Below, piece by piece: positions 1-12,573 of a DNA stretch of 12,573 bases (positions within the stretch are counted from its first letter, which is position 1; every line of letters starts with the position of its first letter). Below the pieces are notes generated by a model that saw only the letters and a list, made by a program, of their open reading frames with translations, ran no database searches and was not told where the DNA came from. This DNA comes from a virus (lineage: Duplodnaviria > Heunggongvirae > Uroviricota > Caudoviricetes): the IMG/VR virus record IMGVR_UViG_2737471828_000010, positions 1 through 12,573 of that record. One strand, given 5' to 3'. Position numbers and translations under genes: made by a program.

Positions 1-603
1 GCAGCCACGCAGACCTTTGATGGTATTGCACAGAATATGGCGGCGATGCTGACCGGCAGTGAGCAGAACTGGCGCAGCTTCACCCGTTCCGTGCTGTCCA
101 TGATGACAGAAATTCTGCTTAAGCAGGCAATGGTGGGGATTGTCGGGAGTATCGGCAGCGCCATTGGCGGGGCTGTTGGTGGCGGCGCATCCGCGTCAGG
201 CGGTACAGCCATTCAGGCCGCTGCGGCGAAATTCCATTTTGCGTCCGGGGGATTTACGGGAACCGGCGGCAAATATGAGCCAGCGGGGATTGTTCACCGT
301 GGTGAGTTTGTCTTCACGAAGGAGGCAACCAGCCGGATTGGCGTGGGAAATCTTTACCGGCTGATGCGCGGCTATGCCACCGGCGGTTATGTCGGTGGCA
401 CCGGAAGTCCGGCGCAAATGCGGCGTTCAGAGGGTATCAGATTTGAGCAGAACAACAACGTGGTGATTCAGAACGACGGTACGAATGGTCTGCCAGGTCC
501 ACAAATGCTGAAGGCGGTGTATGACATGGCCCGCAAGGGTGCCCGTGATGAAATTCAGGCACAGATGCGTGATGGTGGTCAGTTCTCCGGAGGTGGACGA
601 TGA
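1..603 (+). CDS. H: Tail tape measure protein, C-terminal fragment (5' end lies upstream of the window)
   Basis: The frame is open from base 1 with no stop before 601..603; the first in-frame ATG at 37 is not the true start. The Gly-rich C-terminal translation (...GGYVGGTGSPAQMRRSEG...KAVYDMARKGARDEIQAQMRDGGQFSGGGR) matches my recollection of the lambda gpH C-terminus. Its stop overlaps the M start (ATGA at 600..603). Confidence 0.9.
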   Translation, partial: AATQTFDGIAQNMAAMLTGSEQNWRSFTRSVLSMMTEILLKQAMVGIVGSIGSAIGGAVGGGASASGGTAIQAAAAKFHFASGGFTGTGGKYEPAGIVHRGEFVFTKEATSRIGVGNLYRLMRGYATGGYVGGTGSPAQMRRSEGIRFEQNNNVVIQNDGTNGLPGPQMLKAVYDMARKGARDEIQAQMRDGGQFSGGGR

Positions 604-929
604 AAACCTTTCGCTGGAAAGTGAAACCCGGCATGGATGTGGCTTCGGCCCCTTCCGTCAGGGAAGTGCGCTTTGGTGATGGCTATTCCCAGCGAGCGCC
701 TGCCGGACTGAATGCCGACCTGAAAACGTACAGCGTGACGCTTTCTGTTCCTCGTAAGGAGGCCACGGCGCTGGAGTCGTTTCTGGCAGAGCACGGAGGC
801 TGGAAAGCCTTTCTGTGGACGCCGCCTTATGGTTACAGGCAGATAAAGGTGACCTGCGCAAAATGGACGTCGCGGGTCAGTATGTTGCGTGTTGAGTTCA
901 GCGCAGAGTTTAAACAGGTGGTGAACTGA
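600..929 (+). CDS. M: Tail tip assembly protein M
   Basis: 109 aa, the same length as lambda gpM, and near-identical from the first residues (MKTFRWKVKPGMDVAS...VEFSAEFKQVVN). Start overlaps the H stop and the stop overlaps the L start (TGATG at 927..931), consistent with translational coupling. Confidence 0.93.
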   Translation: MKTFRWKVKPGMDVASAPSVREVRFGDGYSQRAPAGLNADLKTYSVTLSVPRKEATALESFLAEHGGWKAFLWTPPYGYRQIKVTCAKWTSRVSMLRVEFSAEFKQVVN

Positions 930-1627
930 TGCAGGATATCCGGCAGGAAACACTGAATGAATGCACCCGTGCGGAGCAGTCGGCCAGCGTGGTGCTCTGG
1001 GAAATCGACCTGACAGAGGTCGGTGGAGAACGTTATTTTTTCTGTAATGAGCAGAACGAAAAAGGTGAACCGGTCACCTGGCAGGGGCGGCAGTATCAGG
1101 CATACCCCATTCAGGGGAGCGGTTTTGAACTGAATGGCAAAGGGGCCAGCGCCAGACCAGTGCTGAGCGTGTCCAATCTGTATGGTCTGGTCACCGGGAT
1201 GGTGGAGGATTTGCAGAGTCTGGTTGGCGGAACGGTGGTCCGACGTAAGGTTTACGCCCGTTTTCTGGATGCGGTGAACTTCGTCAACGGAAACAGTGAC
1301 GCCGACCCGGAGCAGGAGGTGGTCAGCCGCTGGCGCATCGAGCAGTGTAGCGAACTGACGGCGGTTGGTGCCTCCTTTGTGCTGGCCACACCGACGGAAA
1401 CGGATGGCGCCGTTTTTCCGGGGCGCATCATGCTGGCCAACACCTGCACCTGGACCTATCGCGGCGATGAGTGCGGTTATCACGGTCCGGCGGTCGCGGA
1501 TGAATATGACCAGCCGACGTCCGATATCACGAAAGATAAATGCAGCAAATGCCTGAGCGGCTGTAAGTTTCGCAATAACATCGGTAACTTTGGCGGCTAC
1601 CTTTCCATTAACAAACTTTCGCAGTAA
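929..1627 (+). CDS. L: Tail tip assembly protein L
   Basis: 232 aa, the same length and closely similar sequence to lambda gpL as I recall it. Cysteine-rich C-terminus (CTWTYRGDECGYHG...CSKCLSGC), consistent with the Fe-S cluster described for gpL. Confidence 0.93.
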   Translation: MQDIRQETLNECTRAEQSASVVLWEIDLTEVGGERYFFCNEQNEKGEPVTWQGRQYQAYPIQGSGFELNGKGASARPVLSVSNLYGLVTGMVEDLQSLVGGTVVRRKVYARFLDAVNFVNGNSDADPEQEVVSRWRIEQCSELTAVGASFVLATPTETDGAVFPGRIMLANTCTWTYRGDECGYHGPAVADEYDQPTSDITKDKCSKCLSGCKFRNNIGNFGGYLSINKLSQ

Positions 1628-1632
1628 ATCCC

Positions 1633-2376
1633 ATGACACAGACAGAATCAGCGATTCTGGCGCACGCCCGGCGATGTGCGCCAGCGGAATCGTGCGGCTT
1701 CGTGGTGAGAACGCCGGAGGGGGACAGGTATTTACCCTGCGCGAATATTTCCGGTGAGCCGGAGGCGTATTTCCGGATGGCTCCGGAGGACTGGCTGCGG
1801 GCAGAAATGCAGGGTGAGATTGCGGCGCTGGTCCACAGTCACCCCGGTGCTCTGCCCTGGCTGAGTGAGGCCGACCGGCGGCTGCAGGTGCAGAGTGGTC
1901 TGCCGTGGTGGCTTGTCTGCCGGGGGGCGATTCACAAGTTCCGCTGTGTGCCGCATCTTACCGGGCGGCACTTTGAGCACGGGGTGACGGACTGTTATGC
2001 GCTGTTCCGGGATGCGTACCATCTGGCGGGGATTGCGCTGCCTGATTTTCATCGTGAGGATGACTGGTGGTGTCACGGTCAGAATCTCTATCTGGATAAC
2101 CTTGAAACACAGGGTTTTTACCGGGTCTCACCGCATGAGGCACAGGCAGGCGACGTGCTGCTGTGTTGTTTTGGCTCGCCTGTTGCCAATCATGCCGCCA
2201 TTTACTGTGGTGACGGCGAGCTGCTGCACCATATTCCTGAACAACTGAGCAAACGAGAGAGGTACACCGACAAATGGCAGCGACGCACACACTCCGTCTG
2301 GCGTCACCGGGCATGGCACGCATCTGCCTTTACGGGGATTTGCAACGATTTGGCCGCCGCATCGACCTGCGTGTGA
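1633..2376 (+). CDS. K: Tail assembly protein K (JAMM/MPN plus NlpC/P60 two-domain protein)
   Basis: 247 aa ORF with a JAMM-type motif H-x-H-x7-S-x2-D (HSHPGALPWLSEAD, residues 68-81) and a candidate upstream Glu in PAESCGF (residue 19), followed by an NlpC/P60-like Cys/His region (GVTDCY...NHAAIY). The classic 199-aa lambda K annotation would correspond to Met49 (nt 1777). No strong Shine-Dalgarno precedes 1633, so the exact start is uncertain. Confidence 0.85.
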   Translation: MTQTESAILAHARRCAPAESCGFVVRTPEGDRYLPCANISGEPEAYFRMAPEDWLRAEMQGEIAALVHSHPGALPWLSEADRRLQVQSGLPWWLVCRGAIHKFRCVPHLTGRHFEHGVTDCYALFRDAYHLAGIALPDFHREDDWWCHGQNLYLDNLETQGFYRVSPHEAQAGDVLLCCFGSPVANHAAIYCGDGELLHHIPEQLSKRERYTDKWQRRTHSVWRHRAWHASAFTGICNDLAAASTCV

Positions 2377-2951
2377 AAACGGGGGCAGAAGCCATCCGGG
2401 CGCTGGCCACACAGCTCCCTGCGTTTCGCCAGAAACTGAGCGACGGCTGGTATCAGGTGCGGATAGCAGGGAAAGATACAGGAGAGAGAGAGCTGTCTGC
2501 CCGTCTGCATGAGCCGCTTCCTGACGGCGCAGTGATACACCTGGTTCCTCGGACAGCCGGTGCTAAAAACGGCGGTGTTTTCCAGATTGTTCTGGGGGCT
2601 GTCGCCATTGCGGCTTCGTTTTTTACTGCAGGAGCCTCTCTGGCTATGTGGGGCGCCGCATTGAGTGCAACAACACTGAGCGCCACTACAGTCCTGTTTT
2701 CTCTCGGTGCCAGTATGATTCTGGGGGGTGTGGCGCAGATGCTGGCCCCGAAACCGAAAACGCCCCGCATGCAGACAACGGATAACGGTAAGCAGAATAC
2801 CTATTTTTCCTCACTGGATAACATGGTTGCCCAGGGCAATGTTCTGCCGGTTCTGTACGGTGAAATGCTCGTGGGATCGCGGGTGATTTCACAGGAAATC
2901 AGCACGGCTGATGAGGGGGGCGGCGGTCAGGTAGTGGTGATTGGTCGCTGA
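2274..2951 (+). CDS. I: Tail assembly protein I
   Basis: 225 aa, closely similar to lambda gpI (MAATHTL.LASPGMARICLYGDLQRFGRRIDLRVKTGAEAIRALATQLP...GGQVVVIGR). The start lies inside the 3' end of K (about 100 nt overlap, different frame), as in lambda. Confidence 0.9.
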   Translation: MAATHTLRLASPGMARICLYGDLQRFGRRIDLRVKTGAEAIRALATQLPAFRQKLSDGWYQVRIAGKDTGERELSARLHEPLPDGAVIHLVPRTAGAKNGGVFQIVLGAVAIAASFFTAGASLAMWGAALSATTLSATTVLFSLGASMILGGVAQMLAPKPKTPRMQTTDNGKQNTYFSSLDNMVAQGNVLPVLYGEMLVGSRVISQEISTADEGGGGQVVVIGR

Positions 2952-2968
2952 TGCAAATGTTTTATGTG

Positions 2969-2993
2969 AAACCGCCTCCGGGCGGTTTTTTTT
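2969..2993 (+). terminator. GC stem-loop followed by an 8-T run between I and J (intrinsic terminator or attenuator)
   Basis: aaaCCGCCtccgGGCGGtttttttt lies directly after the I stop (2949..2951) and before the J ribosome binding site (GGAGAG at 2996..3001). Confidence 0.5.
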
Positions 2994-3007
2994 ATGGAGA
3001 GTAAGTG

Positions 3008-6000
3008 ATGGGTAAAGGTGGCGGTAAGGCGCATACGCCCCGTGAAGCCAGAGATAACCTGAAATCCTCCCAGTTGCTGAGTGTGATTGACGCCATCAGT
3101 GAAGGACCGGTTTATGGTCCGGTTGACGGGCTGAAAAGTGTCCGCCTGAATGGTACGCCGGTACTGGACAGCGGGGGGAATACCAACTTTTCCGGTGTCA
3201 CGGTGGTGTTCCGTTCCGGTGAACAGGAGCAGACACCGCCGGAGGGGTTTGAATCCTCCGGCTCCGAGACGGTACTGGGTGCGGAAGTGAAATACGACAC
3301 GCCGATAACCCGGACCATCACGTCGGCAAACATCGACCGTCTGCGCCTGACCTTCGGGGTGCAGGCACTGGTGAAAACCACCTCAAAGGGGGACAGGGAG
3401 CCGTCGGAAGTCCGCCTGCTGGTTCAGATACAGCGTAATGGTGGCTGGGTGACGGAAAAAGACATCACCATTAAGGGCAAAACCACCTCGCAGTATCTGG
3501 CATCGGTGGTGGTGGATAACCTGCCGCCGCGCCCGTTTAATATCCGGATGCGCAGGATAACGCCGGACAGCACCACGGACCAGTTGCAGAACAAAACGGT
3601 CTGGTCGTCATACACCGAAATCATCGATGTGAAACAGTGCTACCCGAACACGGCACTGGTCGGTGTGCAGGTGGATTCTGAGCAGTTCGGCAGCCAGCAG
3701 GTGAACCGCACTTACCATTTTCGTGGTCGTATTCTGCAGGTTCCGTCGAACTATAACCCGCAGACGCGGCAATACAGCGGTATCTGGGACGGAACGTTAA
3801 AACCGGCATACAGCAACAACCCGGCCTGGTGTCTGTGGGATATGCTGACCCACCCGCGCTACGGCATGGGGAAACGTCTTGGTGCGGCAGATGTGGATAA
3901 ATGGGCGCTGTATGTCATCGGCCAGTACTGCGACCAGTCAGTGCCGGACGGTTTTGGCGGCACGGAGCCGCGCATCACCTGTAATGCCTGGCTGACCACA
4001 CAACGTAAGGCGTGGGATGTGCTCAGCGATTTCTGCTCGGCGATGCGCTGTATGCCGGTATGGAACGGGCAGACGCTGACGTTCGTGCAGGACCGGCCAT
4101 CGGATAAGGTGTGGACCTATAACCGCAGTAATGTGGCGATGCCGGGTGATGGCGCGCCGTTCCGCTACAGCTTCAGCGCCCTGAAGGACCGCCATAATGC
4201 CGTTGAGGTGAACTGGATTGACCCTGACAACGGCCAGGAGACGGCGACAGAGCTTGTGGAGGACACGCAGGCCATTGCCCGTTACGGTCGTAACGTCACG
4301 AAGATGGATGCCTTTGGCTGTACCAGTCGTGGGCAGGCGCACCGCGCCGGGCTGTGGCTGATTAAAACAGAACTGCTGGAAACGCAGACCGTGGACTTCA
4401 GCGTGGGTGCTGAAGGGCTTCGCCATGTACCGGGCGATGTCATTGAAATCTGCGATGATGACTATGCCGGTATCAGCACCGGCGGGCGCGTGCTGGCGGT
4501 AAACAGCCAGACCCGGACGCTGACGCTCGACCGTGAAATCACGCTGCCATCCTCCGGTACCACGCTGATAAGCCTGGTTGACGGAAGTGGCAATCCGGTC
4601 AGCGTGGAGGTCCAGTCCGTCACCGACGGCGTGAAGGTAAAAGTGAGCCGTGTTCCTGACGGCGTTGCAGAATACAGCGTGTGGGGGCTGAAGCTGCCGA
4701 CGCTGCGTCAGCGCCTGTTTCGCTGTGTGAGTATCCGTGAGAACGATGACGGCACGTATGCCATCACCGCCGTGCAGCATGTACCGGCAAAAGAGGCCAT
4801 CGTGGATAACGGGGCGCACTTTGACGGCGACCAGAGCGGCACGGTGAATGGTGTCACGCCGCCAGCGGTGCAGCACCTGACTGCCGAAGTCACCGCAGAC
4901 AGCGGGGAATATCAGGTGCTGGCGCGCTGGGACACGCCGAAGGTGGTGAAGGGGGTGAGCTTCCTGCTCCGTCTGACCGTAACAGCGGACGAAGGCAGTG
5001 AGCGGCTGGTCAGCACGGCCCGGACGACGGAAACCACATACCGCTTCACGCAACTGGCGCTGGGGAACTACAGGCTGACAGTCCGGGCGGTAAATGCGTG
5101 GGGACAGCAGGGCGATCCGGCATCGGTATCGTTCCGGATTGCCGTACCAGCAGCGCCGTCGCGGATTGAGCTGACACCGGGCTATTTTCAGATAACCGCC
5201 ACGCCGCATCTTGCGGTTTATGATCCGACGGTGCAGTTTGAGTTCTGGTTCTCGGAAAAGCGGATTGCGGATATCAGGCAGGTTGAAACCAGCGCGCGTT
5301 ATCTTGGTACGGCGCTGTACTGGATAGCCGCCAGTATCAATATCAAACCGGGCCATGATTATTACTTTTATATCCGCAGTGTGAACACCGTTGGCAAATC
5401 GGCATTCGTGGAGGCTGTTGGTCAGCCGAGTGATGATGCATCCGGTTATCTGGATTTTTTCAAAGGCGAGATAGGGAAAACCCATCTGGCTCAGGAGCTG
5501 TGGACGCAGATTGATAACGGTCAGCTTGCGCCTGACCTGGCTGAAATCAGGACGTCCATTACGGATGTCAGCAATGAAATCACACAGACCGTCAATAAGA
5601 AACTGGAAGACCAGAGTGCAGCGATCCAGCAGATACAGAAGGTTCAGGTTGATACAAATAATAATCTGAACAGCATGTGGGCTGTGAAGCTGCAACAGAT
5701 GAAGGACGGACGCCTTTATATTGCGGGTATCGGTGCCGGTATTGAGAATACGCCAGCAGGAATGCAGAGTCAGGTGCTGCTGGCGGCAGACAGGATTGCG
5801 ATGATTAATCCTGCGAATGGCAACACAAAGCCGATGTTTGTTGGTCAGGGTGATCAGATATTCATGAATGAAGTGTTCCTGAAATATCTGACGGCTCCCA
5901 CCATTACCAGTGGCGGTAATCCTCCGGCGTTTTCCCTGACTCCGGACGGGCGGCTGACGGCGAAAAATGCGGATATCAGCGGTAACGTGAACGCGAACTC

Positions 6001-6487
6001 CGGGACACTCAACAACGTCACGATAAATGAGAACTGCCGGATTCTGGGAAAACTGTCAGCCAACCAGATTGAAGGCGATATTGTTAAAACAGTGGGTAAG
6101 GCTTTTCCCCGGGACTCCCGGGCACCGGAGCGGTGGCCATCAGGGACCATTACCGTCAGGGTTTATGACGATCAGCCGTTTGACCGGCAAATTGTTATTC
6201 CGGCGGTGGCATTCAGTGGCGCTAAGCATGAGAGAGAGCATACTGATATTTACTCCTCATGCCGTCTGATAGTGCGGAAAAACGGTGCTGAAATTTATAA
6301 CCGTACCGCGCTGGATAATACGCTGATTTACAGTGGTGTTATTGATATGCCAGCAGGCAGAGGTGTAATGACACTGGAGTTTTCGGTATCAGCATGGCTG
6401 GTGAATAACTGGTATCCCACCGCAAGTATCAGCGATTTGCTGGTTGTGGTGATGAAAAAATCCACAGCCGGTATCACGATTAGCTGA
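3008..6487 (+). CDS. J: Tail tip / host specificity protein J (central tail fiber)
   Basis: About 1159 aa. The N-terminus [34 protein letters not shown]... and most of the length are closely similar to lambda gpJ as I recall it. The ORF track begins at GTG 3005, but ATG 3008 with GGAGAG 6 nt upstream is the more likely start. The last ~150 aa and a block near nt 5460-5700 diverge from lambda. Confidence 0.93.
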
Positions 6488-6505
6488 ATTTTATAATCCA
6501 TATAC

Positions 6506-6531
6506 TGGCGCCAGAAATGGCGCCTTTTTTA
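6506..6531 (+). terminator. Intrinsic terminator downstream of J
   Basis: Palindromic stem GGCGCC (6507..6512) / GGCGCC (6519..6524) with loop agaaat, followed by TTTTTT (6525..6530), 20 nt after the J stop. Confidence 0.65.
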
Positions 6532-6584
6532 TTGTTATTCCTGAATCCTCTCTTCCGGGGCTGACATTGACTTATGGAGTACAT

Positions 6585-8306
6585 ATGGCCGTACAGATAT
6601 CTGGTGTACTGAAAGACGGTGCGGGTAAACCGGTGCAGGCGTGTTCAATTGAATTGCGGTCCAGAAAAACGAGTCCGACGGTGATTGTGCACATTGTGGC
6701 GGAATGTATTACGGACAGTAACGGGCGGTATTTAATCGAAGCCGAGCCAGGATTTTATGATGTTTTTCTTCTCCGTGAAGGGTGGGCTCCGGTAAAAGCC
6801 GGTGAGATTTATGTCACACCGACGGATAAGCCGGATACGCTGAATGCATTTCTGGATGCTCCCAAAGATGGCGATTTGCGTCCTGAGGTGATGAAACGCT
6901 TTGAGATAATGGTGAATACCGTTATTACGCTGTCTGAGCAGGTTACCCGTGATAAGGAGGCAACAGGCGCAGACGCCGCGGCAGCGGCAGAATCGGCGTC
7001 CGCTGCCCGGGAAAGTGAAAGGAAATCGCAGAATTATGAGGTGCAGTCTCAGAAAAATGCAGAGTCTGCAGCCGGAAGTGCGCAGGAGGCCGGACAATAT
7101 GCTGTGGAGGCTGCACAGGCAAGAGATAATACGCAGACCCTTGCTGATGCGGTGCAGAAAAATGCAGAGGTTGTGGCAGAACAGCGTCAGCAGGTGAATA
7201 TACTGGCTGCAGAAATGGCAGAAAATGCCGGACAGGTTCAGCAGGATAAACAGGATACTGAGCGGCTGCTGGAGCAGGCACAACAGGCAGCCAGTGAGTC
7301 TTCAGCCAGTGCCGTGGAGTCGGGGACGCATGCCAGCGAAGCTGCACAGAGTGCACGGCAGGTAAGCAGTGATTTACAGAAGACGGTAACGGCACGTAAT
7401 GAGGCAGAGGGTTTTGCCACAGAGGCCGCCAGTCGTGCAGAAGAGAGTGCACAGATAAAAGCGCAGACGGAGTCCGTGGCTCTGAATGTTCAGCATGTGG
7501 CAGACAGTGTTGTGGCTGTAAGCCAGTCTGTGGAGCTACAGGCCGGGCAGGTGCAGCAACTGGTCAGCCAGGCGGAAGACAGTGCCACGACAGCAGGTGA
7601 ACATGAGCAGGGGGCACTGAAGGCACTGGAGGAGGCCAGGGAGATTGCAAAAACGCCAGGACCACAGGGAGAGCCAGGACCGCAGGGGGAGACCGGCCCA
7701 CAGGGCCCCAGTGGTGAAAAGGGAGAGAAAGGGGACCGGGGCGATACCGGGCCTCAGGGAGAAAAAGGTGAGAAAGGCGATAAAGGTGATACCGGTGCCC
7801 GGGGAGCTACCGGCCCACAGGGGCCTCAGGGACCCATGGGACCCAGCGGAGTTTACCCGGAAGACGGGATAAAGACTGCGAAAAAATTCACGGGTATTCT
7901 GGCTCATGGTTTTATGTATTCTGACCTTCAGTTTCCGTTGCTGAAATATAACCACTACCTTGCCTGTGAAGACCACCCCGTTCCGGGTGCCGCGGGAAAT
8001 TATTCGTATGGTCTGATGTGGCAGGTTCCGACGAATGAGAATGTTTCAGGTCAGATTTTCCTTAACTGTATGGGACAGGCATTCATCAGGGCTTACAGCG
8101 GACTGGGTACCACTTCATGGTGGCAGTTTGCCGGTCGTCCGGTAGCCGGTGGTGTGGGGAGTTACCTGTTCTGTGCTTCTCAGGATGCGGTCAGTTACGG
8201 AGATGAACTGGCCGGAGAGCGGCTTGACCCGGTACAGTCAGGAATATGGATGGCCTGCGGAAATGCAGAAGCTGAAGAGAAAATGCTTTTTCTGAGGGTG
8301 AAATAA
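6585..8306 (+). CDS. stf: Side tail fiber protein (Stf-like) with an Ala/Gln/Glu-rich shaft, a collagen-like tract and a distinct C-terminal domain
   Basis: N-terminus [24 protein letters not shown]... resembles the lambda Stf N-terminus ([17 protein letters not shown]...). ATG 6585 has GGAG 5 nt upstream; the track start TTG 6567 is less likely. Residues ~125-360 form a low-complexity A/Q/E/S-rich region, and the C-terminal ~150 aa is a globular-looking domain I cannot assign. Confidence 0.8.
7659..7850 (+). repeat. Collagen-like Gly-X-Y repeat tract (64 residues) inside the tail fiber gene
   Basis: Uninterrupted G-X-Y periodicity, [64 protein letters not shown], visible in the DNA as repeated ggN-ccN-cag and ggN-gaN-aaa units. 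Confidence 0.85.
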
Positions 8307-8917
8307 TGGATACCAGGAATTCAGAAGCGGACGTGCGCAATGCCCGTTTTAATGAAGACGGCAGCATTACCTGTGAGGTGTTCATGGCAGACCGTTCTGA
8401 TGACAGTCATCGGGTATATGTACCTTATACTGCCAGAGCTTCAGACCCGACAGAATTCGGGTTAAGGCTCTGGTCAGGACTGATATCAGGGGACCTTGGT
8501 GAAGTCACGCCGTTTGTGGTGACAGAGGAGATACTGGAAAAGGCCAGAAATCAGAAATACGGTGAAATCAGTCGCTGGCGTGACAGCCAGGAGAACAGCA
8601 GTTTTGTTTTTGAATTCAGTGGTCATCGCTGGGATGCCGGAAAGGCGTCACAGTCCAGACTGACACCTGTTGTTGCGGTGGCAGGAAACGGGCTGTTGCC
8701 GGAGCATTTTTTCTGGACGGATGCGGATAATCAGGATGTCACTCTGACGCCGGAAGAGCTGATACAACTGGATACTGCGATGAATGCGGCGATGGTGATG
8801 CAGGGGTTTAAAATCCACGAACGCCAGCGCCGGATGAAAGAAGAAGTGGCAGGGCTGACCGCACTGCCGGATATTCGTGCGTATCCTGTTGGCTGGCCGG
8901 AGGGTGATGATGAGTAA
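8306..8917 (+). CDS. Putative tail fiber assembly protein (Tfa-like chaperone)
   Basis: 203 aa ORF whose ATG overlaps the fiber stop (TAATG at 8304..8308), with a GAGGGTG ribosome binding site upstream. Position immediately after the fiber gene and a C-terminal segment (...TPEELIQLDTAMNAAMVMQGFKIHERQRRMKEEVAGLTALPDIRAYPVGWPE) reminiscent of Tfa C-termini. Assigned by context plus weak similarity. Confidence 0.6.
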   Translation: MDTRNSEADVRNARFNEDGSITCEVFMADRSDDSHRVYVPYTARASDPTEFGLRLWSGLISGDLGEVTPFVVTEEILEKARNQKYGEISRWRDSQENSSFVFEFSGHRWDAGKASQSRLTPVVAVAGNGLLPEHFFWTDADNQDVTLTPEELIQLDTAMNAAMVMQGFKIHERQRRMKEEVAGLTALPDIRAYPVGWPEGDDE

Positions 8918-9290
8918 GTTCACCACACCGGCCATTCTGGAGATGCTGGATGATTACCGCTGGCGGCTGGTTGAGCCGTTTGAATTCTGGCTGACGGATA
9001 ACCCGGATGATGTGATTTATGTTCCGGAGGGATATGTGACGGACCTTGCCAGTGTGCCACGGCTTCTGTGGGCTCTGTTCCCGCCGCATGGTCGTTATGC
9101 GAAAGCGGCGATTATTCATGACTGGCTGTATGACAATGCCCTGCGCACGAAGGCGGAAGCGGACAGGATATTTCTGGATGCGATGACGGTGCTGGGAGTT
9201 CCACGCTGGCGCAGACGGTTGATGTATCTTGCGGTAAGGTTGTTCGGGAAAGGGAAATACAGCGACACGCAACAGGGGACCTGTTGCTGA
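8907..9290 (+). CDS. DUF1353-like small protein (tail-fiber-associated, function unknown)
   Basis: About 127 aa from the ATG pair at 8907/8910, with GGAGGG at 8899..8904, overlapping the stop of the preceding gene. Translation MMSKFTTPAILEMLDDYRWRLVEPFEFWLTD...YVTDLASVPRLLWALFPPHGRYAKAAIIHDWLY resembles the DUF1353 signature as I remember it. The track start GTG 8877 is less likely. Confidence 0.55.
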   Translation: MMSKFTTPAILEMLDDYRWRLVEPFEFWLTDNPDDVIYVPEGYVTDLASVPRLLWALFPPHGRYAKAAIIHDWLYDNALRTKAEADRIFLDAMTVLGVPRWRRRLMYLAVRLFGKGKYSDTQQGTCC

Positions 9291-9320
9291 AAAAAGTCTG
9301 CCATACAGATGTATGGCAGA
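9290..9320 (-). terminator. Leftward intrinsic terminator candidate (H1)
   Basis: Perfect stem CTGCCATA (9298..9305) / TATGGCAG (9312..9319), flanked on the + strand 5' side by six A's, which gives a 3' U-run on the - strand transcript. Confidence 0.5.
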
Positions 9321-9493
9321 AAAGGTATCCAAGGGAGAAGACACTGCAGTGCAGTATCCCTTATGGTCGGCGGTGATTATATAACCACAGAACGGCGCAT
9401 CAAACAGTTTTACGTACCAGTTGTTAAATTTGTGTATTATATCAAACAAATTGGTAACATGCTGCTGTGTGTAAATGTGATGTTAACATGGTG

Positions 9494-9529
9494 ATATGTG
9501 TTACTGACTGGTATTGCCTGTTCACCTGG
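9494..9529. repeat. ~36 nt repeat, copy 1 of 2 (atatgtgttactgactggtattgcctgttcacctgg)
   Basis: Matches 10569..10609, which carries a short internal insertion (ccacg/accacgt). Both copies are in the ORF-poor AT-rich region. Confidence 0.6.
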
Positions 9530-9564
9530 TCTGTGAAGATATGCAACATGGCCCATGTTGTAGC

Positions 9565-9597
9565 AAAAAAAGCCTGCCATACAGATATATGGCAGGC
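9565..9597 (-). terminator. Leftward intrinsic terminator candidate (H2, paralog of H1)
   Basis: Stem GCCTGCCATA / TATGGCAGGC with loop cagata, preceded on + by seven A's. On the - strand this reads as a GC stem followed by TTTTTTT. Same stem as H1 with a 1-nt loop difference. Confidence 0.6.
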
Positions 9598-9805
9598 AAA
9601 CGTCTGTTACGGGAAAACAAATGAATGTCGGGTATAGTACCCCCTTACTTGACTCCTTCACAATTATGCATCAATAATGAAACATATAAAGCATTTGTAT
9701 TTTCTTATTGCTGGTTTTGTGTATTGCGTCTCAAAACTAAATTATTTTATTACTCTCATAATAAATGAGGTAAATTATATATATAGTTATTTATTCTGTT
9801 TTTAT

Positions 9806-9834
9806 AAAAAGAAGCCCACAGATTACTGTGGGCT
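9806..9834 (-). terminator. Leftward intrinsic terminator candidate (H3)
   Basis: Stem AGCCCACAG / CTGTGGGCT with loop atta, preceded on + by tataaaaagaa (a U-rich tail on the - strand). Confidence 0.55.
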
Positions 9835-10085
9835 AAGCATTAGCATTATTTATATTAGTATAGTTACGGTTGCTGTAAGCATATTAGCTTACGGAAATGT
9901 TGATAACTCTGATGGGAATCACAAAAAAATACCAGTGCTGAAAATGACAGTACTGGTAAAAATATGATGAGTATTTGCAAAAAATACAACCGAATTGCTC
10001 TGTAAGGTTCACTACCTCTTTTATTCTACTATAAATTATAGTACATAGTTCTGTGATACTTATCACGCTGTATATTCATTGGTAT

Positions 10086-10110
10086 AAAAAGGCCCGTATG
10101 GATACGGGCC
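10086..10110 (-). terminator. Leftward intrinsic terminator candidate (H4)
   Basis: Stem GGCCCGTA / TACGGGCC with loop tgga, preceded on + by tataaaaa. Confidence 0.55.
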
Positions 10111-10207
10111 TGGCTTACGGGATAGGCTAACTGAGTAAGTAGGGTTATGGCTTACTCGCCGGCAGTATACCATATAAAACAACGGACAATTCTTTGCGGT
10201 AAATCAT

Positions 10208-10236
10208 AAAAAAAGACCCGTACCGTACGTGCGGGT
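10208..10236 (-). terminator. Leftward intrinsic terminator candidate (H5)
   Basis: Stem ACCCGTAC / GTGCGGGT (one non-Watson-Crick position) with loop cgtac, preceded on + by seven A's. Confidence 0.45.
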
Positions 10237-10354
10237 GTTAATTGCTGGTGAAGCTGTCAGAGGTGCATATTATTATAATAACGCTTGTAGACGTTTGTTA
10301 TTATTTATGCCCTCTATTACTGGTACTGTGATTTCCATCACAAAAATACATTAT

Positions 10355-10382
10355 AAAAAGAAAGCCCGCAGATTATGCGGGC
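10355..10382 (-). terminator. Leftward intrinsic terminator candidate (H6, paralog of H3)
   Basis: Stem GCCCGCA / TGCGGGC with loop gatta, preceded on + by tataaaaagaaa. Differs from H3 by a compensatory base-pair change (A-T in H3, G-C in H6). Confidence 0.55.
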
Positions 10383-10401
10383 AATAGCTTATGCATGAGA
10401 T

Positions 10402-10426
10402 GAACGACTCCGGGTCGTTTATTTTT
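10402..10426 (+). terminator. Weak rightward hairpin with T-run (possible + strand terminator)
   Basis: Stem AACGAC / GTCGTT with loop tccgg, followed by tatttttc. Short, AT-rich stem. Confidence 0.3.
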
Positions 10427-10568
10427 CTTAATAAGAAGGACTACATTTATATTCTACTATGTAAGTATGGTATTGATGATGTGAAGTATATCTCAAATTA
10501 ACGCAATAAGAAAAAGCAACAACCCATTTCTGAATGTGAGAGAACTGCTAATATAGCAATATGTGTTC

Positions 10569-10609
10569 CTGACTGGTACCACGTATTGCCTGTTCCAGGA
10601 GCATATTTG
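10569..10609. repeat. ~36 nt repeat, copy 2 of 2 (atatgtgttcctgactggtaccacgtattgcctgttccagg)
   Basis: Direct repeat of 9494..9529. Confidence 0.6.
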
Positions 10610-10665
10610 CCTGGATTCAGATTGCTCGTAATTCACCACGGCTATAAATCGTAAAGAAAATTGCA

Positions 10666-10718
10666 GCACGCCCTATGCAAGAACGTGCCACGGCTGGCTG
10701 GCAAACTTTCGATAGTGC
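10666..10718. repeat. ~50 nt imperfect direct repeat, left copy (hairpin with loop tatgcaaga ... cgatagtgc), left flank of the peptidase cassette
   Basis: gcacg-ccctatgcaagaa-cgtgc-cacggctggctggcaaactttcgatagtgc aligns with 12269..12321 (first 15 nt tatgcaagaacgtgc identical; roughly 80 percent identity over the remainder). Confidence 0.65.
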
Positions 10719-10998
10719 GAGTATTGAATGATTTCCAGTCGTTATTGATTCTACGCATTAATTTATGAACAAACTACTTATCTGTGGTCTTTCGGTCTGT
10801 AATAGGGGCCCTGTCTGAAATGGAGTTTCAGGATTAAGCGATATCGTACTCACCCTTAGTCCCACCTGATAAATCTGGAGAACGGAAGCACTGCCAGATG
10901 ATGGTGGTGGCTACAATTACTCACACTCAATATTCGGAGCAATCACGTACATCATCACGATGCTAGGAATGCGGAGTTTGATGACTGTCCAGTGATGT

Positions 10999-11029
10999 AA
11001 AAAGAGACCCCGGCGTAGTAGCCGAGGTC
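10999..11029 (-). terminator. Leftward intrinsic terminator candidate for the peptidase gene
   Basis: Stem GACCCCGGC / GCCGAGGTC (one mismatch) with loop gtagta, 22 nt downstream of the - strand stop at 11051..11053. On the - strand it is followed by tctcTTTTT. Confidence 0.5.
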
Positions 11030-11050
11030 CTCAATCAGAAACTACAATAT

Positions 11051-12055
11051 TCACTGAGTGCCTTCATCTGGTTGCTCTGCTGGTAAGGTTCCAGCCTCTT
11101 CTTCAATTTCCGCATGTTTTCCATCGCTTCCCTGGACAGGTTCATCCCTTGGCGGTTCTGCTCTTCCTGAATTTTGGTCAGAGATTTCATCTCCTTCCTG
11201 AATTCTGCTGTTGTCATGGGAATCTTCCTCTGCGTTAGTTGTTTCATATTGTTTTTTAGGAGTTAAATCTTTAATCACCGGTTTGTCGAAGATAGAGATT
11301 TCGCCTGACGAAATCATCTCACCAAGAACTTCGTACAGGTTGGCTGCAAAGTCTGTAGGACTCTCAACATGGTTGAATAGTTCCCTCGCCTCTTTACGGT
11401 CTATCACAAAACCATGGGCTGGATATCCAGCGATCAACTTGCCTAAGGAGCTTTCCTTAAGATTTTTCGAGTGACTATTCAAACGCTCCCCATAGGAAAG
11501 CGCTATGTTCATTGCTCGTTGATGCTCCCCGAGTTTGATGGGGTCTATCTGTGAGGCCATCGGCGATATGATTGCTTCAGTAAGCTTAGCAGCAATATCT
11601 GCAGACATCTTCGTGCTAATTTGGTTTCTGTACTTTATATCAAGTACGTATGATCTAAAGGTCGAAATAGCGCACTCTTTTATTTCATCAATCGCCGTTG
11701 CGATAACAAGGCCCGAGCTCAATTCGCCGATCTCATCATTTTTCTTAAGTTGGATGTCTAGAGGACCAAGCTCACCCATATCACCAATCACGAGCTTATG
11801 AGCGGCGACAGCCATCAAGGTTCCAGCACTTTTGCAAGGGCCAACAACTAGAACGGTGATGTGTTCATAGTTGTGTTGCAAAGCGCGGCCAATTCTATAT
11901 CCTGCGCTGGGATCACCGCCATAGGTAGCGACGCAAAAAAGAACATTTTTTTGTAAACCATGGTTAGTTTTTCTTTCTTTAATCGCTTTGGTGATGTCGT
12001 GATGACCAGAGCGGTGAACATCGCCTATGTATACGTAAACGTCTGTATCTTGCAT
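11051..12055 (-). CDS. Stand-alone ClpP/SppA-fold serine peptidase-like protein (S49/SDH-like) with an acidic low-complexity C-terminal tail
   Basis: 334 aa ORF with ribosome binding site AGGGA 5 nt upstream of the ATG (- strand). N-terminal ~220 aa follows the ClpP-fold pattern: ATYGGDPSAGYRIGRAL echoes the ClpP NSPGGSVTAG segment, and VVGPCKSAGTLMAVAAHK echoes the ClpP/SppA nucleophile segment (GQAASMG type), giving a candidate catalytic Ser in CKSAG. The last ~70 aa are Asp/Glu-rich and low complexity. No His in the position of the ClpP catalytic His, so a Ser-Lys dyad (SppA-like) is possible. Confidence 0.6.
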   Translation of the reverse strand: MQDTDVYVYIGDVHRSGHHDITKAIKERKTNHGLQKNVLFCVATYGGDPSAGYRIGRALQHNYEHITVLVVGPCKSAGTLMAVAAHKLVIGDMGELGPLDIQLKKNDEIGELSSGLVIATAIDEIKECAISTFRSYVLDIKYRNQISTKMSADIAAKLTEAIISPMASQIDPIKLGEHQRAMNIALSYGERLNSHSKNLKESSLGKLIAGYPAHGFVIDRKEARELFNHVESPTDFAANLYEVLGEMISSGEISIFDKPVIKDLTPKKQYETTNAEEDSHDNSRIQEGDEISDQNSGRAEPPRDEPVQGSDGKHAEIEEEAGTLPAEQPDEGTQ

Positions 12056-12268
12056 TTTAATCCCTATGAATAAAATGGTTGAATTTAATGCTGTTCCTCA
12101 GCCAAAGCACTATATCGATAACCAAAATACCTCAGATTTGTCGAGAAAACTATCTGGAAAATTAGGCTAACTCTTTGAATCTTCGGAATGCAAAAGAGAT
12201 ACTTTCTCTGGATGTGCGCCAGGTTGATGTGTAAGTATGGCGGTCAGAATAGTCTCGAAAAACCGCAG

Positions 12269-12321
12269 GCACGTTGTATGCAAGAACGTGCTGTGGTTGG
12301 CAGGTGAACTTCCGATAGTGC
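12269..12321. repeat. ~50 nt imperfect direct repeat, right copy; also a terminator-like hairpin directly downstream of the DinI-like gene
   Basis: gcacgtt-gtatgcaag-aacgtgc then tgtggttggcaggtgaacttccgatagtgc. On the - strand the hairpin is followed by a T-run (complement of aaaaa at 12258..12262). Confidence 0.6.
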
Positions 12322-12324
12322 TCA

Positions 12325-12573
12325 TTAGTGAACAAACCACTCGTCAGCAGACTCCCAGGTATCTTTCAGAGTTTCCTGCACAAAAGTTTTAGCTGAATCT
12401 TTATCGGCTGTGCGCGTAACAGAAAGGCCATCGTTGCTGGTGGCTTTTACGATCACCTCTACATCGTCATAACGCTTACTGATGCGTCGGGTTAATTCTT
12501 CCTTTAACGCATCCACAGCACTGGTTGGCATTTTAGTCATTTTTTCTTTGGCTATGCAGATTTCAATACGCAT
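12325..12573 (-). CDS. dinI: DinI-family protein (DNA damage-inducible protein I-like, prophage-encoded)
   Basis: 82 aa: [37 protein letters not shown]...[15 protein letters not shown]. Start and C-terminal WESAD-WFV motif match E. coli DinI as I recall it (MRIEVTIAK...ETWESADDWFVSE). The start codon is the last three bases of the window, so the promoter is outside it. Confidence 0.85.

Follow-up and report, generated by a model that had tools for sequence, protein, structure and literature searches.

The slot between the repressor gene cI and the antiterminator gene N (the cI-N slot) is a recognised defence hotspot of prophages, in which lambda carries rexAB and BTP1 carries bstA (10.1101/2020.07.13.199331); GiPD474 and remAIN are also hosted there (PMC12724215). 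Here we analysed a 12,573-nucleotide stretch of a Caudoviricetes virus (IMG/VR record IMGVR_UViG_2737471828_000010, positions 1 to 12,573; hereafter the window) and one gene within it, a coding sequence at positions 11,051-12,055 on the minus strand (ATG start, from the list of open reading frames, ORFs) whose product is a stand-alone ClpP-fold (SDH-like) serine peptidase of 334 amino acids. Half of its homologues on phage contigs lie directly after a CI/LexA-type S24 repressor, many are followed by an N antiterminator, as in the cI-N slot, and defence genes occasionally occur nearby. From this usual slot and these neighbours, we consider the peptidase a candidate single-gene phage-exclusion or abortive-infection enzyme made in lysogens, a reading to which we give a probability of roughly 40%.

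Several described systems offer points of comparison. RexAB, BstA and the Gifsy protein GiPD474 share with many peptidase relatives the repressor-to-N slot, a variable presence and an assortment independent of the repressor, and in one genome a homologue has bstA as a neighbour. Unlike them, the peptidase described here sits in an int/dinI-proximal slot; the proteins themselves are unrelated. GiPD474 turned out to be an unrelated ATPase. The Lit protease of prophage e14 is likewise a single prophage-encoded peptidase: it is a zinc metallopeptidase of abortive infection, with the T4 Gol peptide as its trigger and EF-Tu as its target. Cleavage of a target during infection is also what we propose for the candidate here, which differs from Lit in fold and catalytic type. 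In ImmA/ImmR, the protease is encoded next to the repressor that it cleaves, and in both ImmA/ImmR and CapP/CapH a protease gene stands beside a lysogeny or damage-responsive repressor; such pairs adjoin some homologues of the peptidase. Both are, however, M78 metallopeptidases in a fixed pair with a helix-turn-helix (HTH) protein, whereas the peptidase shows no co-variation with a repressor and often has none beside it. CapH/CapP pairs control immune operons upon DNA damage, according to two reports (PMC13228613; 10.1101/2022.04.27.489752).

Fold, family and candidate active site

The gene was present exactly as an earlier note on this DNA had described it, antisense to the tail operon in AT-rich DNA between the tail-fibre side and a DinI-like gene, with GGDPSAG at residues 46-52 and GPCKSAG at residues 72-78 of the translation. 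It is a real gene and no chance ORF: a word-indexed search returned 2850 homologues, and an exhaustive hidden Markov model (HMM) search against representative clusters (at 50% identity) returned 5601 clusters at E ≤ 1e-3, of which 1371 reach E ≤ 1e-30. Close homologues share the start residue (MxxxDVYVY), which supports the ATG start. The conserved core (residues 1-235; 11,351-12,055, minus strand), delimited by predicted structure and alignment, consists of an alpha/beta ClpP-like domain (residues 1-105; predicted local distance difference test, pLDDT, >90), a conserved low-confidence loop (residues 106-116) and a helical region bearing the motif Y211-P-x-H214-x-F-x-I-D219-x-x-E222. The protein has the ClpP/crotonase fold, and its best fold matches in BFVD are named SDH family. 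No transmembrane segment or signal-like N-terminus was predicted (the maximal 19-residue hydropathy of 1.59 falls in a buried strand), and the peptidase is predicted to be soluble and cytoplasmic.

Overall, the peptidase is a ClpP/crotonase-fold serine peptidase of a large, distinct subfamily that is distantly related to the SDH family (PF01972, formerly DUF114; NF047768). The earlier note had assigned a ClpP/SppA fold from motifs and named the profiles Peptidase_S49, SDH_sah and CLP_protease as ways to check it. The fold stood, while membership in the named families stayed below threshold: Pfam SDH_protease (PF01972) scored 27.0 bits (E 2.9e-6, residues 37-106 only; gathering threshold 31.3 bits), NCBIfam Clp_like_SDH (NF047768) 35.9 bits (residues 20-106; equivalog cutoff 250 bits), Pfam CLP_protease 16.1 bits (E 0.01; cutoff 20.2 bits) and NfeD1b_N 17.8 bits (E 0.0026; cutoff 40), and Peptidase_S49 gave no Pfam match at E ≤ 1. 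These sub-threshold matches span residues ~20-106 only. SDH is nevertheless the best sequence-profile match, the names in RefSeq (“SDH family Clp fold serine proteinase” or “Clp protease”) agree with those in BFVD, and most homologues carry a precomputed PF01972 match, many of them at 40-85% identity and some of the matches marked weak. Setting the peptidase apart from SDH are its scores below the cutoffs, a match limited to ~70-87 residues around the nucleophile, its own PHROG (21683, unknown function, matched at full length with E 2e-198), a longer helical C-terminal region, a disordered tail and a distinctive prophage synteny. A sequence search of the PDB found no close solved relative, and a profile search of the same database gave only ClpP (1y7o, E 0.18). 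We know of no member of the SDH family with a known biological role.

Conservation was assessed over 146 diverse representatives that are 35-51% identical to the query core, and the sole polar residues invariant among them are S76, D100, Q102, S114, Y188, H214 and E222. The candidate nucleophile S76 (codon AGT, 11,828-11,830, minus strand), in the context C74-K75-S76-A-G-T-L, is invariant in 146/146 and pairs with the ClpP nucleophile in both the HMMER and the hhalign alignments, in line with the choice of the Ser in CKSAG by the earlier note; the hhalign alignment with E. coli ClpP covers residues 4-81 only, at low probability. As in ClpP (MEROPS S14), this Ser stands at the same place after a G-G-x-x-x-A-G oxyanion segment. 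Unlike ClpP, the peptidase has no His ~25 residues past the Ser: residues 99-102 are an invariant L-D-I-Q, with D100, I101 and Q102 at that place, and no AAA+ partner is encoded in the window or conserved beside the homologues, although the peptidase might conceivably use host ClpX or ClpA. By manual inference, D100, 24 residues past S76, would fall at about the position of ClpP His122 and the candidate H214 near ClpP Asp171, and the stretch H214-G-F-x-x-x-x-x-E-A appears to resemble D171-R-F-x-x-x-x-E-A of ClpP.

Both D100 (codon GAC in G97-P-L-D100-I-Q102; 11,756-11,758, minus strand) and H214 (codon CAT; 11,414-11,416, minus strand) are invariant in 146/146, as candidate Asp and His of a triad. 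This invariance suggests a Ser-Asp-His triad (S76, D100, H214) as in the SDH family, whose Pfam name presumably comes from this order of residues, a derivation not confirmed in the literature searched. The catalytic candidates stay invariant down to 35% identity, a sign of purifying selection on an active site. A Lys partner of the SppA type, which the earlier note had entertained, found no counterpart: no Lys is invariant, and position 105 is K in 123, R in 12, N in 8 and another residue in 3 of the 146 sequences. A Ser/Lys dyad is therefore unlikely, and with D100 and H214 invariant it was rejected as the leading model. K75 immediately precedes S76, and the position of H178 is mostly hydrophobic across the relatives. 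SppA and NfeD 1510-N, which are ATP-independent, self-compartmentalising Ser/Lys peptidases, resemble the peptidase in the name “SppA protein” that several databases give to it, and SppA offers a precedent for the tail; the peptidase differs from both in that it has no invariant Lys, no S49 match and neither a signal peptide nor a membrane anchor.

ClpP- and S49-fold enzymes are common as prohead (head-maturation) proteases, and weak PHROG and NCBIfam matches to such proteases were found (E 2.6e-6 and 1.1e-6). That the peptidase is a prohead protease or another component of virion assembly is extremely improbable and was rejected on context, since the match to its own PHROG is far stronger and the gene lies outside the head module, as the earlier note had pointed out, at the int end of the prophage and antisense to the tail genes. 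The gene is also absent from closely related phages and occurs in prophages with unrelated virion modules, which speaks against a conserved structural component, and its relatives adjoin a repressor rather than portal or capsid genes.

The core is followed by a low-complexity tail (residues 270-334; 11,054-11,248, minus strand), delimited by composition and pLDDT, which has 20 D/E against 4 K/R (net charge -16) and is predicted to be disordered (pLDDT ~33). The acidic disordered tail reported by the earlier note thus held for the query, whereas its acidity did not hold across the family, which weakens the idea of a DNA mimic. A disordered polar tail is near-universal (median 60 amino acids, range 2-117, in 146 tails), with D, E, K, R, S, T, P, Q, G, N or A making up 87% of its residues across the family. 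Its sequence is hypervariable, however, and neither length nor charge is conserved: net charge spans -18 to +11, with 72 of the 146 tails clearly acidic and 11 clearly basic, so that an acidic tail as a conserved DNA mimic is disfavoured. Strong acidity is peculiar to the clade that contains the query. Relatives in the Enterobacterales keep a semi-conserved C-terminal motif, G-T-L/I-P-x-x-Q-P-D (11,054-11,100 in the query, minus strand), down to ~59% identity, which may serve in docking or recognition. In B. subtilis SppA, the C-termini are bound in the protein's own active sites, with self-processing and regulation, according to the title of PDB entry 4kwb, and SppA is a precedent for a regulatory or self-processed tail extension. 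An alternative-frame ORF of 70 amino acids (11,035-11,247, minus strand) overlaps the tail-coding end of the gene and its stop codon and is probably spurious.

Genomic context of the homologues

Of the loci on 70 IMG/VR phage contigs, 63 have an upstream neighbour that points the same way as the peptidase gene; Peptidase_S24 is present in this neighbour at 35 loci and HTH_3 at 22. Downstream, an N antiterminator (PF25694, 70.5 bits) is the most frequent neighbour, found at 14 loci, with a related, weaker-scoring ORF at 4 more. The same order recurs in individual genomes at decreasing identity to the query. In the closest relative outside E. coli (a Kluyvera-like locus, 84% identity), an HTH+S24 repressor, the peptidase and RecE follow one another. 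In Klebsiella (77% identity), a CI-type HTH repressor and then the peptidase are divergent from YdaS/YdaT, and RecE/RecT and int come next. In Morganella (50% identity), a gene for Cro stands beside an HTH+S24 repressor gene followed by the peptidase, and in Bartonella (42% identity) the peptidase again follows an HTH+S24 repressor. Deposited phage genomes with a homologue number only two: Klebsiella phage ST13-OXA48phi12.4, in which the homologue and an XRE + ImmA/IrrE pair are divergent and DinI is close by, and the P2-like Burkholderia phage vB_HM387, in which it adjoins the integrase gene.

The peptidase and the neighbouring repressor do not travel together. Unrelated repressors can precede peptidases of 100% identity, and repressors that are 98% identical precede peptidases of only 46% identity (loci L127 vs L151; L126 vs L129). 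Since the alleles assort independently, the peptidase is better described as cargo in the slot than as half of a cognate protease-repressor pair; co-evolution with the adjacent repressor was looked for and none was found. Allelic replacement in one slot may reflect diversifying pressure on the peptidase. Nor was a conserved partner gene (ATPase, sensor or immunity protein) found upstream or downstream in 150 loci, and the window holds no ATPase gene, which agrees with the earlier note's remark that the peptidase has no partner ATPase.

Defence-related genes were found near some homologues. A PADLOC run on 134 proteins flanking the species-level loci identified CapP-like M78 peptidases in 4 cases, with a CapH-like HTH also present in 1 of the 2 CapP-like loci checked individually, and BstA in 2; further matches were to MADS components, a type II restriction endonuclease, BilA and a PD-DExK protein. 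Pairs of an HTH protein with ImmA/IrrE (M78) also stand beside some homologues. One of the BstA cases is in Gilliamella, where a full-length bstA lies 0.9 kb downstream of the homologue and co-directional with it (E 7e-117). At this locus (L021), two small ORFs, one of them YidD-like by eye, lie between the repressor and the peptidase (4,468-4,903); together with the downstream bstA, they make several cargo genes stacked in one repressor-proximal slot.

The cassette in E. coli

Of 5426 complete E. coli genomes, 21 carry the peptidase gene, with at least 98.3% identity and an intact ORF. One of these genomes only, GXU-23-25-310, has the lambdoid arrangement of the window, in the order tail fibre, DUF4376, DUF1353, AT-rich spacer, peptidase (minus strand), DinI (minus strand), integrase (minus strand) and dusA. 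In the other E. coli genomes, the module (window position 10,663 or 10,798 to 12,573) ends myovirus prophages with a Mu-like baseplate, which are inserted at dusA in UTME-7 and beside prfC in APEC O78. Overall, the peptidase is optional prophage cargo; here it occupies an accessory slot near int and dinI in a lambdoid prophage inserted at dusA. The dusA site thus hosts unrelated prophages, lambdoid siphovirus-type (L178) and Mu-like-baseplate myovirus (L001), with a common int-dinI-peptidase end module, and this sharing is a modular exchange of the integration end.

The boundaries of the cassette point the same way. The dinI-like gene (12,325-12,573, minus strand; 82 amino acids, PF06183 at 70.1 bits) is the same-strand upstream neighbour of the peptidase gene, and in 133 related dinI-bearing phage records the match to the window is limited to dinI and ~60-116 nt, without the peptidase. 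In phage Lys8385Vzw, dinI and its terminator are contiguous, the cassette is absent and a different gene follows dinI. In the window, two copies of the dinI 3' end and terminator (10,663-10,778 and 12,263-12,341; 79-88% identity) bracket the peptidase cassette. The right-hand copy belongs to the intact dinI copy (12,263-12,573), in which the downstream/terminator region forms copy A of a 53-59-nt direct repeat (12,263-12,321, minus strand), and the diverged left-hand copy (10,663-10,778, minus strand), which marks the left cassette boundary, is 88% identical to Lys8385Vzw. The ~1.5 kb between them holds the remnant of an S24 repressor, the peptidase gene and its 5' spacer. This duplication makes the cassette look like an acquisition by recombination between two dinI-bearing prophages. 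The earlier note's description of the gene as a moron is therefore borne out by its presence in few E. coli genomes, its absence from the related phages and its bracketing by the duplicated dinI terminator.

The repressor remnant is a 174-nt C-terminal piece of an S24/LexA-family gene (10,828-11,001, plus strand), recognised through RefSeq relatives, in which it is a frameshifted or partial pseudogene; it is convergent with the peptidase gene and part of the shared cassette. A Pfam search with the 39-amino-acid fragment gave no match. The 5' spacer, from the dinI terminator to the peptidase start (213 nt; 12,056-12,268, minus strand), has a sequence found in E. coli loci only. The G+C content of the peptidase gene is 0.41-0.475, compared to 0.54-0.64 for the tail genes. 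As to the ribosome binding site and terminator that the earlier note had ascribed to the gene, the terminator was confirmed as an intrinsic-terminator-like hairpin (10 pairs, 7 of them G-C, then CTTTTT; 11,005-11,030, minus strand) 20 nt past the stop codon, while the Shine-Dalgarno-like AGGGA, read from the sequence 5 nt 5' of the ATG (12,061-12,065, minus strand), is only a partial match to AGGAGG. Terminator-like sites are frequent in the region (9 observed vs 2.5 ± 1.5 in shuffles).

In the full prophage (L178), the dinI-like gene is adjoined by the integrase gene and then dusA, and two perfect LexA boxes (CTGT-N8-ACAG; L178 13,290-13,305 and 13,318-13,333) lie just past the end of the window, in the 61-bp gap between integrase and dinI. 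The dinI of the prophage is probably SOS-regulated, as would be any read-through into the peptidase gene; directly upstream of the peptidase gene itself no LexA box was seen. These features bear on another reading, in which the peptidase is an accessory protease of the lysogeny switch or SOS response that clears the fragments of auto-cleaved S24 repressors, or degrades DinI, UmuD-type proteins or an antirepressor, and thereby tunes prophage induction. Host ClpXP removes LexA fragments, and ImmA/ImmR and CapP/CapH set a precedent for a protease gene beside its repressor substrate. S24 repressors at half of the phage loci, the recurrent HTH + ImmA/IrrE pairs, the S24 remnant in the E. coli cassette, the LexA boxes upstream of dinI and a DinI gene that adjoins the peptidase here and in Klebsiella phage ST13-OXA48phi12.4 would all suit such a role. 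It appears unlikely all the same, given that the peptidase does not co-vary with the repressor, that many homologues have no adjacent repressor (here only a dead convergent fragment is present) and that a hotspot of cargo in the immunity region accounts for the adjacency equally well.

In UTME-7, IS903B is inserted ~50 nt upstream of the peptidase ATG, between the peptidase gene and dinI (L001, 13,093-14,061), and may silence or re-promote the gene. One could take this insertion, which parts the gene from its upstream region in one strain, together with the failure to detect a promoter and the pseudogene debris in the cassette (the S24 and dinI remnants), as signs of a non-enzymatic or decaying passenger, that is, a pseudo-peptidase, a scaffold or else a selfish hitch-hiker that at present does nothing in this prophage. 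We consider this very unlikely because the ORF is intact and conserved across the 21 E. coli genomes, and all candidate catalytic residues are kept and are invariant in relatives as distant as 35% identity.

On the far side of the peptidase gene, past a 1.7-kb AT-rich spacer, lie the DUF1353, DUF4376 and tail-fibre genes. The AT-rich spacer (9,300-10,700; 31-39% G+C) contains no convincing ORF. It has five strong terminator-like hairpins on the minus strand, at 9,597, 9,834, 10,111, 10,382 and 10,691 (intervals of ~240-310 nt), and two repeat families, D1 (4 copies of 28 nt) and D2 (3 copies of 33 nt). An Rfam scan of positions 9,000-12,573 gave two sub-threshold matches at chance level only. 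Small RNAs, morons for small proteins or the decayed remains of cargo could be present in the spacer. A very hydrophobic, AT-rich ORF of 96 amino acids within it (9,677-9,967, plus strand; best Pfam match Tweety, E 0.018, not significant) could be a small membrane protein or noise. The tail-fibre protein (6,567-8,306, plus strand) has a long low-complexity region rich in A, Q and E, which is probably helical, followed by collagen-like G-X-Y repeats.

A candidate exclusion peptidase

If the peptidase acts in phage exclusion or abortive infection, it would in the relatives be expressed in the lysogen with the repressor transcript, and in this prophage either from its own, weak promoter or by transcription that runs on from the SOS-controlled dinI. 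On the model of ClpP, SppA and NfeD, it might form a ring-shaped, ATP-independent peptidase with an S76-H214-D100 triad, and the disordered tail, as in B. subtilis SppA, could be a regulatory extension that is autoinhibitory or self-processed. DNA damage or the arrival of another phage would then trigger the cleavage of a protein, from phage or host, that phage growth requires. The idea of defence or exclusion was put forward in the earlier note; it is a hypothesis that the repressor-to-N synteny and the bstA and CapH/CapP-like neighbours have strengthened.

Several observations weigh against this role. In this window, the peptidase gene lies outside the repressor slot; a promoter search of the 213-nt spacer upstream of it detected nothing close to the sigma-70 consensus, and a terminator-like element lies between dinI and the peptidase gene. 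The protein scores under the curated cutoff of every peptidase family that it matched, the catalytic roles of D100 and H214 are read from conservation, and none of the PADLOC-DB 2.0.0 defence HMMs matched it at E ≤ 1. The frequency of defence neighbours, ~10% of the 134 flanking proteins, comes without a matched background and is suggestive only. The literature searched contained no analysis of function, synteny or catalysis for this family (the paper on the Klebsiella prophage does not discuss the homologue). Finally, at 73 species-level genome loci an S24 repressor is upstream in 6, the rest having varied housekeeping genes there, and with mostly such neighbours the family is not exclusively linked to phages or defence.

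An alternative explanation is that the peptidase is a host-directed conversion or fitness factor with no link to competition among phages, which would reshape the proteostasis of the host or break down one of its regulators or a toxin (stress tolerance, addiction or anti-toxin). Homologues are distributed broadly and sporadically over many phyla, often beside housekeeping genes, the peptidase is stand-alone with no sensor or partner gene, and its moron features suit any gene of benefit to the lysogen. We regard this as distinctly unlikely, as no contextual link to a specific metabolic or stress pathway was found and the context that recurs most strongly consists of the phage immunity region and known defence genes. 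Returning to exclusion or abortive infection, a wider form of that reading may be put forward tentatively: the peptidase could be the founding member of an unrecognised single-gene anti-phage family of ATP-independent ClpP-fold Ser-Asp-His peptidases, with a hypervariable tail that is possibly autoinhibitory or specificity-determining, expressed by hundreds of proteobacterial prophages from repressor-N or int-proximal slots, where cleavage of a target from phage or host would abort or exclude infection.

The RefSeq name and the PHROG of the peptidase were already known; the synteny and the catalytic-residue analysis are new with respect to the literature searched. DNA downstream of prophage repressors has proved to yield single-gene defences (RexAB, BstA, GiPD474, remAIN), and a large uncharacterised ClpP-fold family (~1400 clusters), absent from PADLOC-DB 2.0.0, repeatedly fills this slot. 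Should the gene instead tune prophage induction, it would add a new layer of lysogeny control. If it proves to be a defence gene, it would bring a new catalytic type to prophage immunity, a self-contained Ser-Asp-His ClpP-like peptidase, would give the SDH/DUF114 superfamily its first biological role, and would offer a one-gene system for how a protease senses infection.

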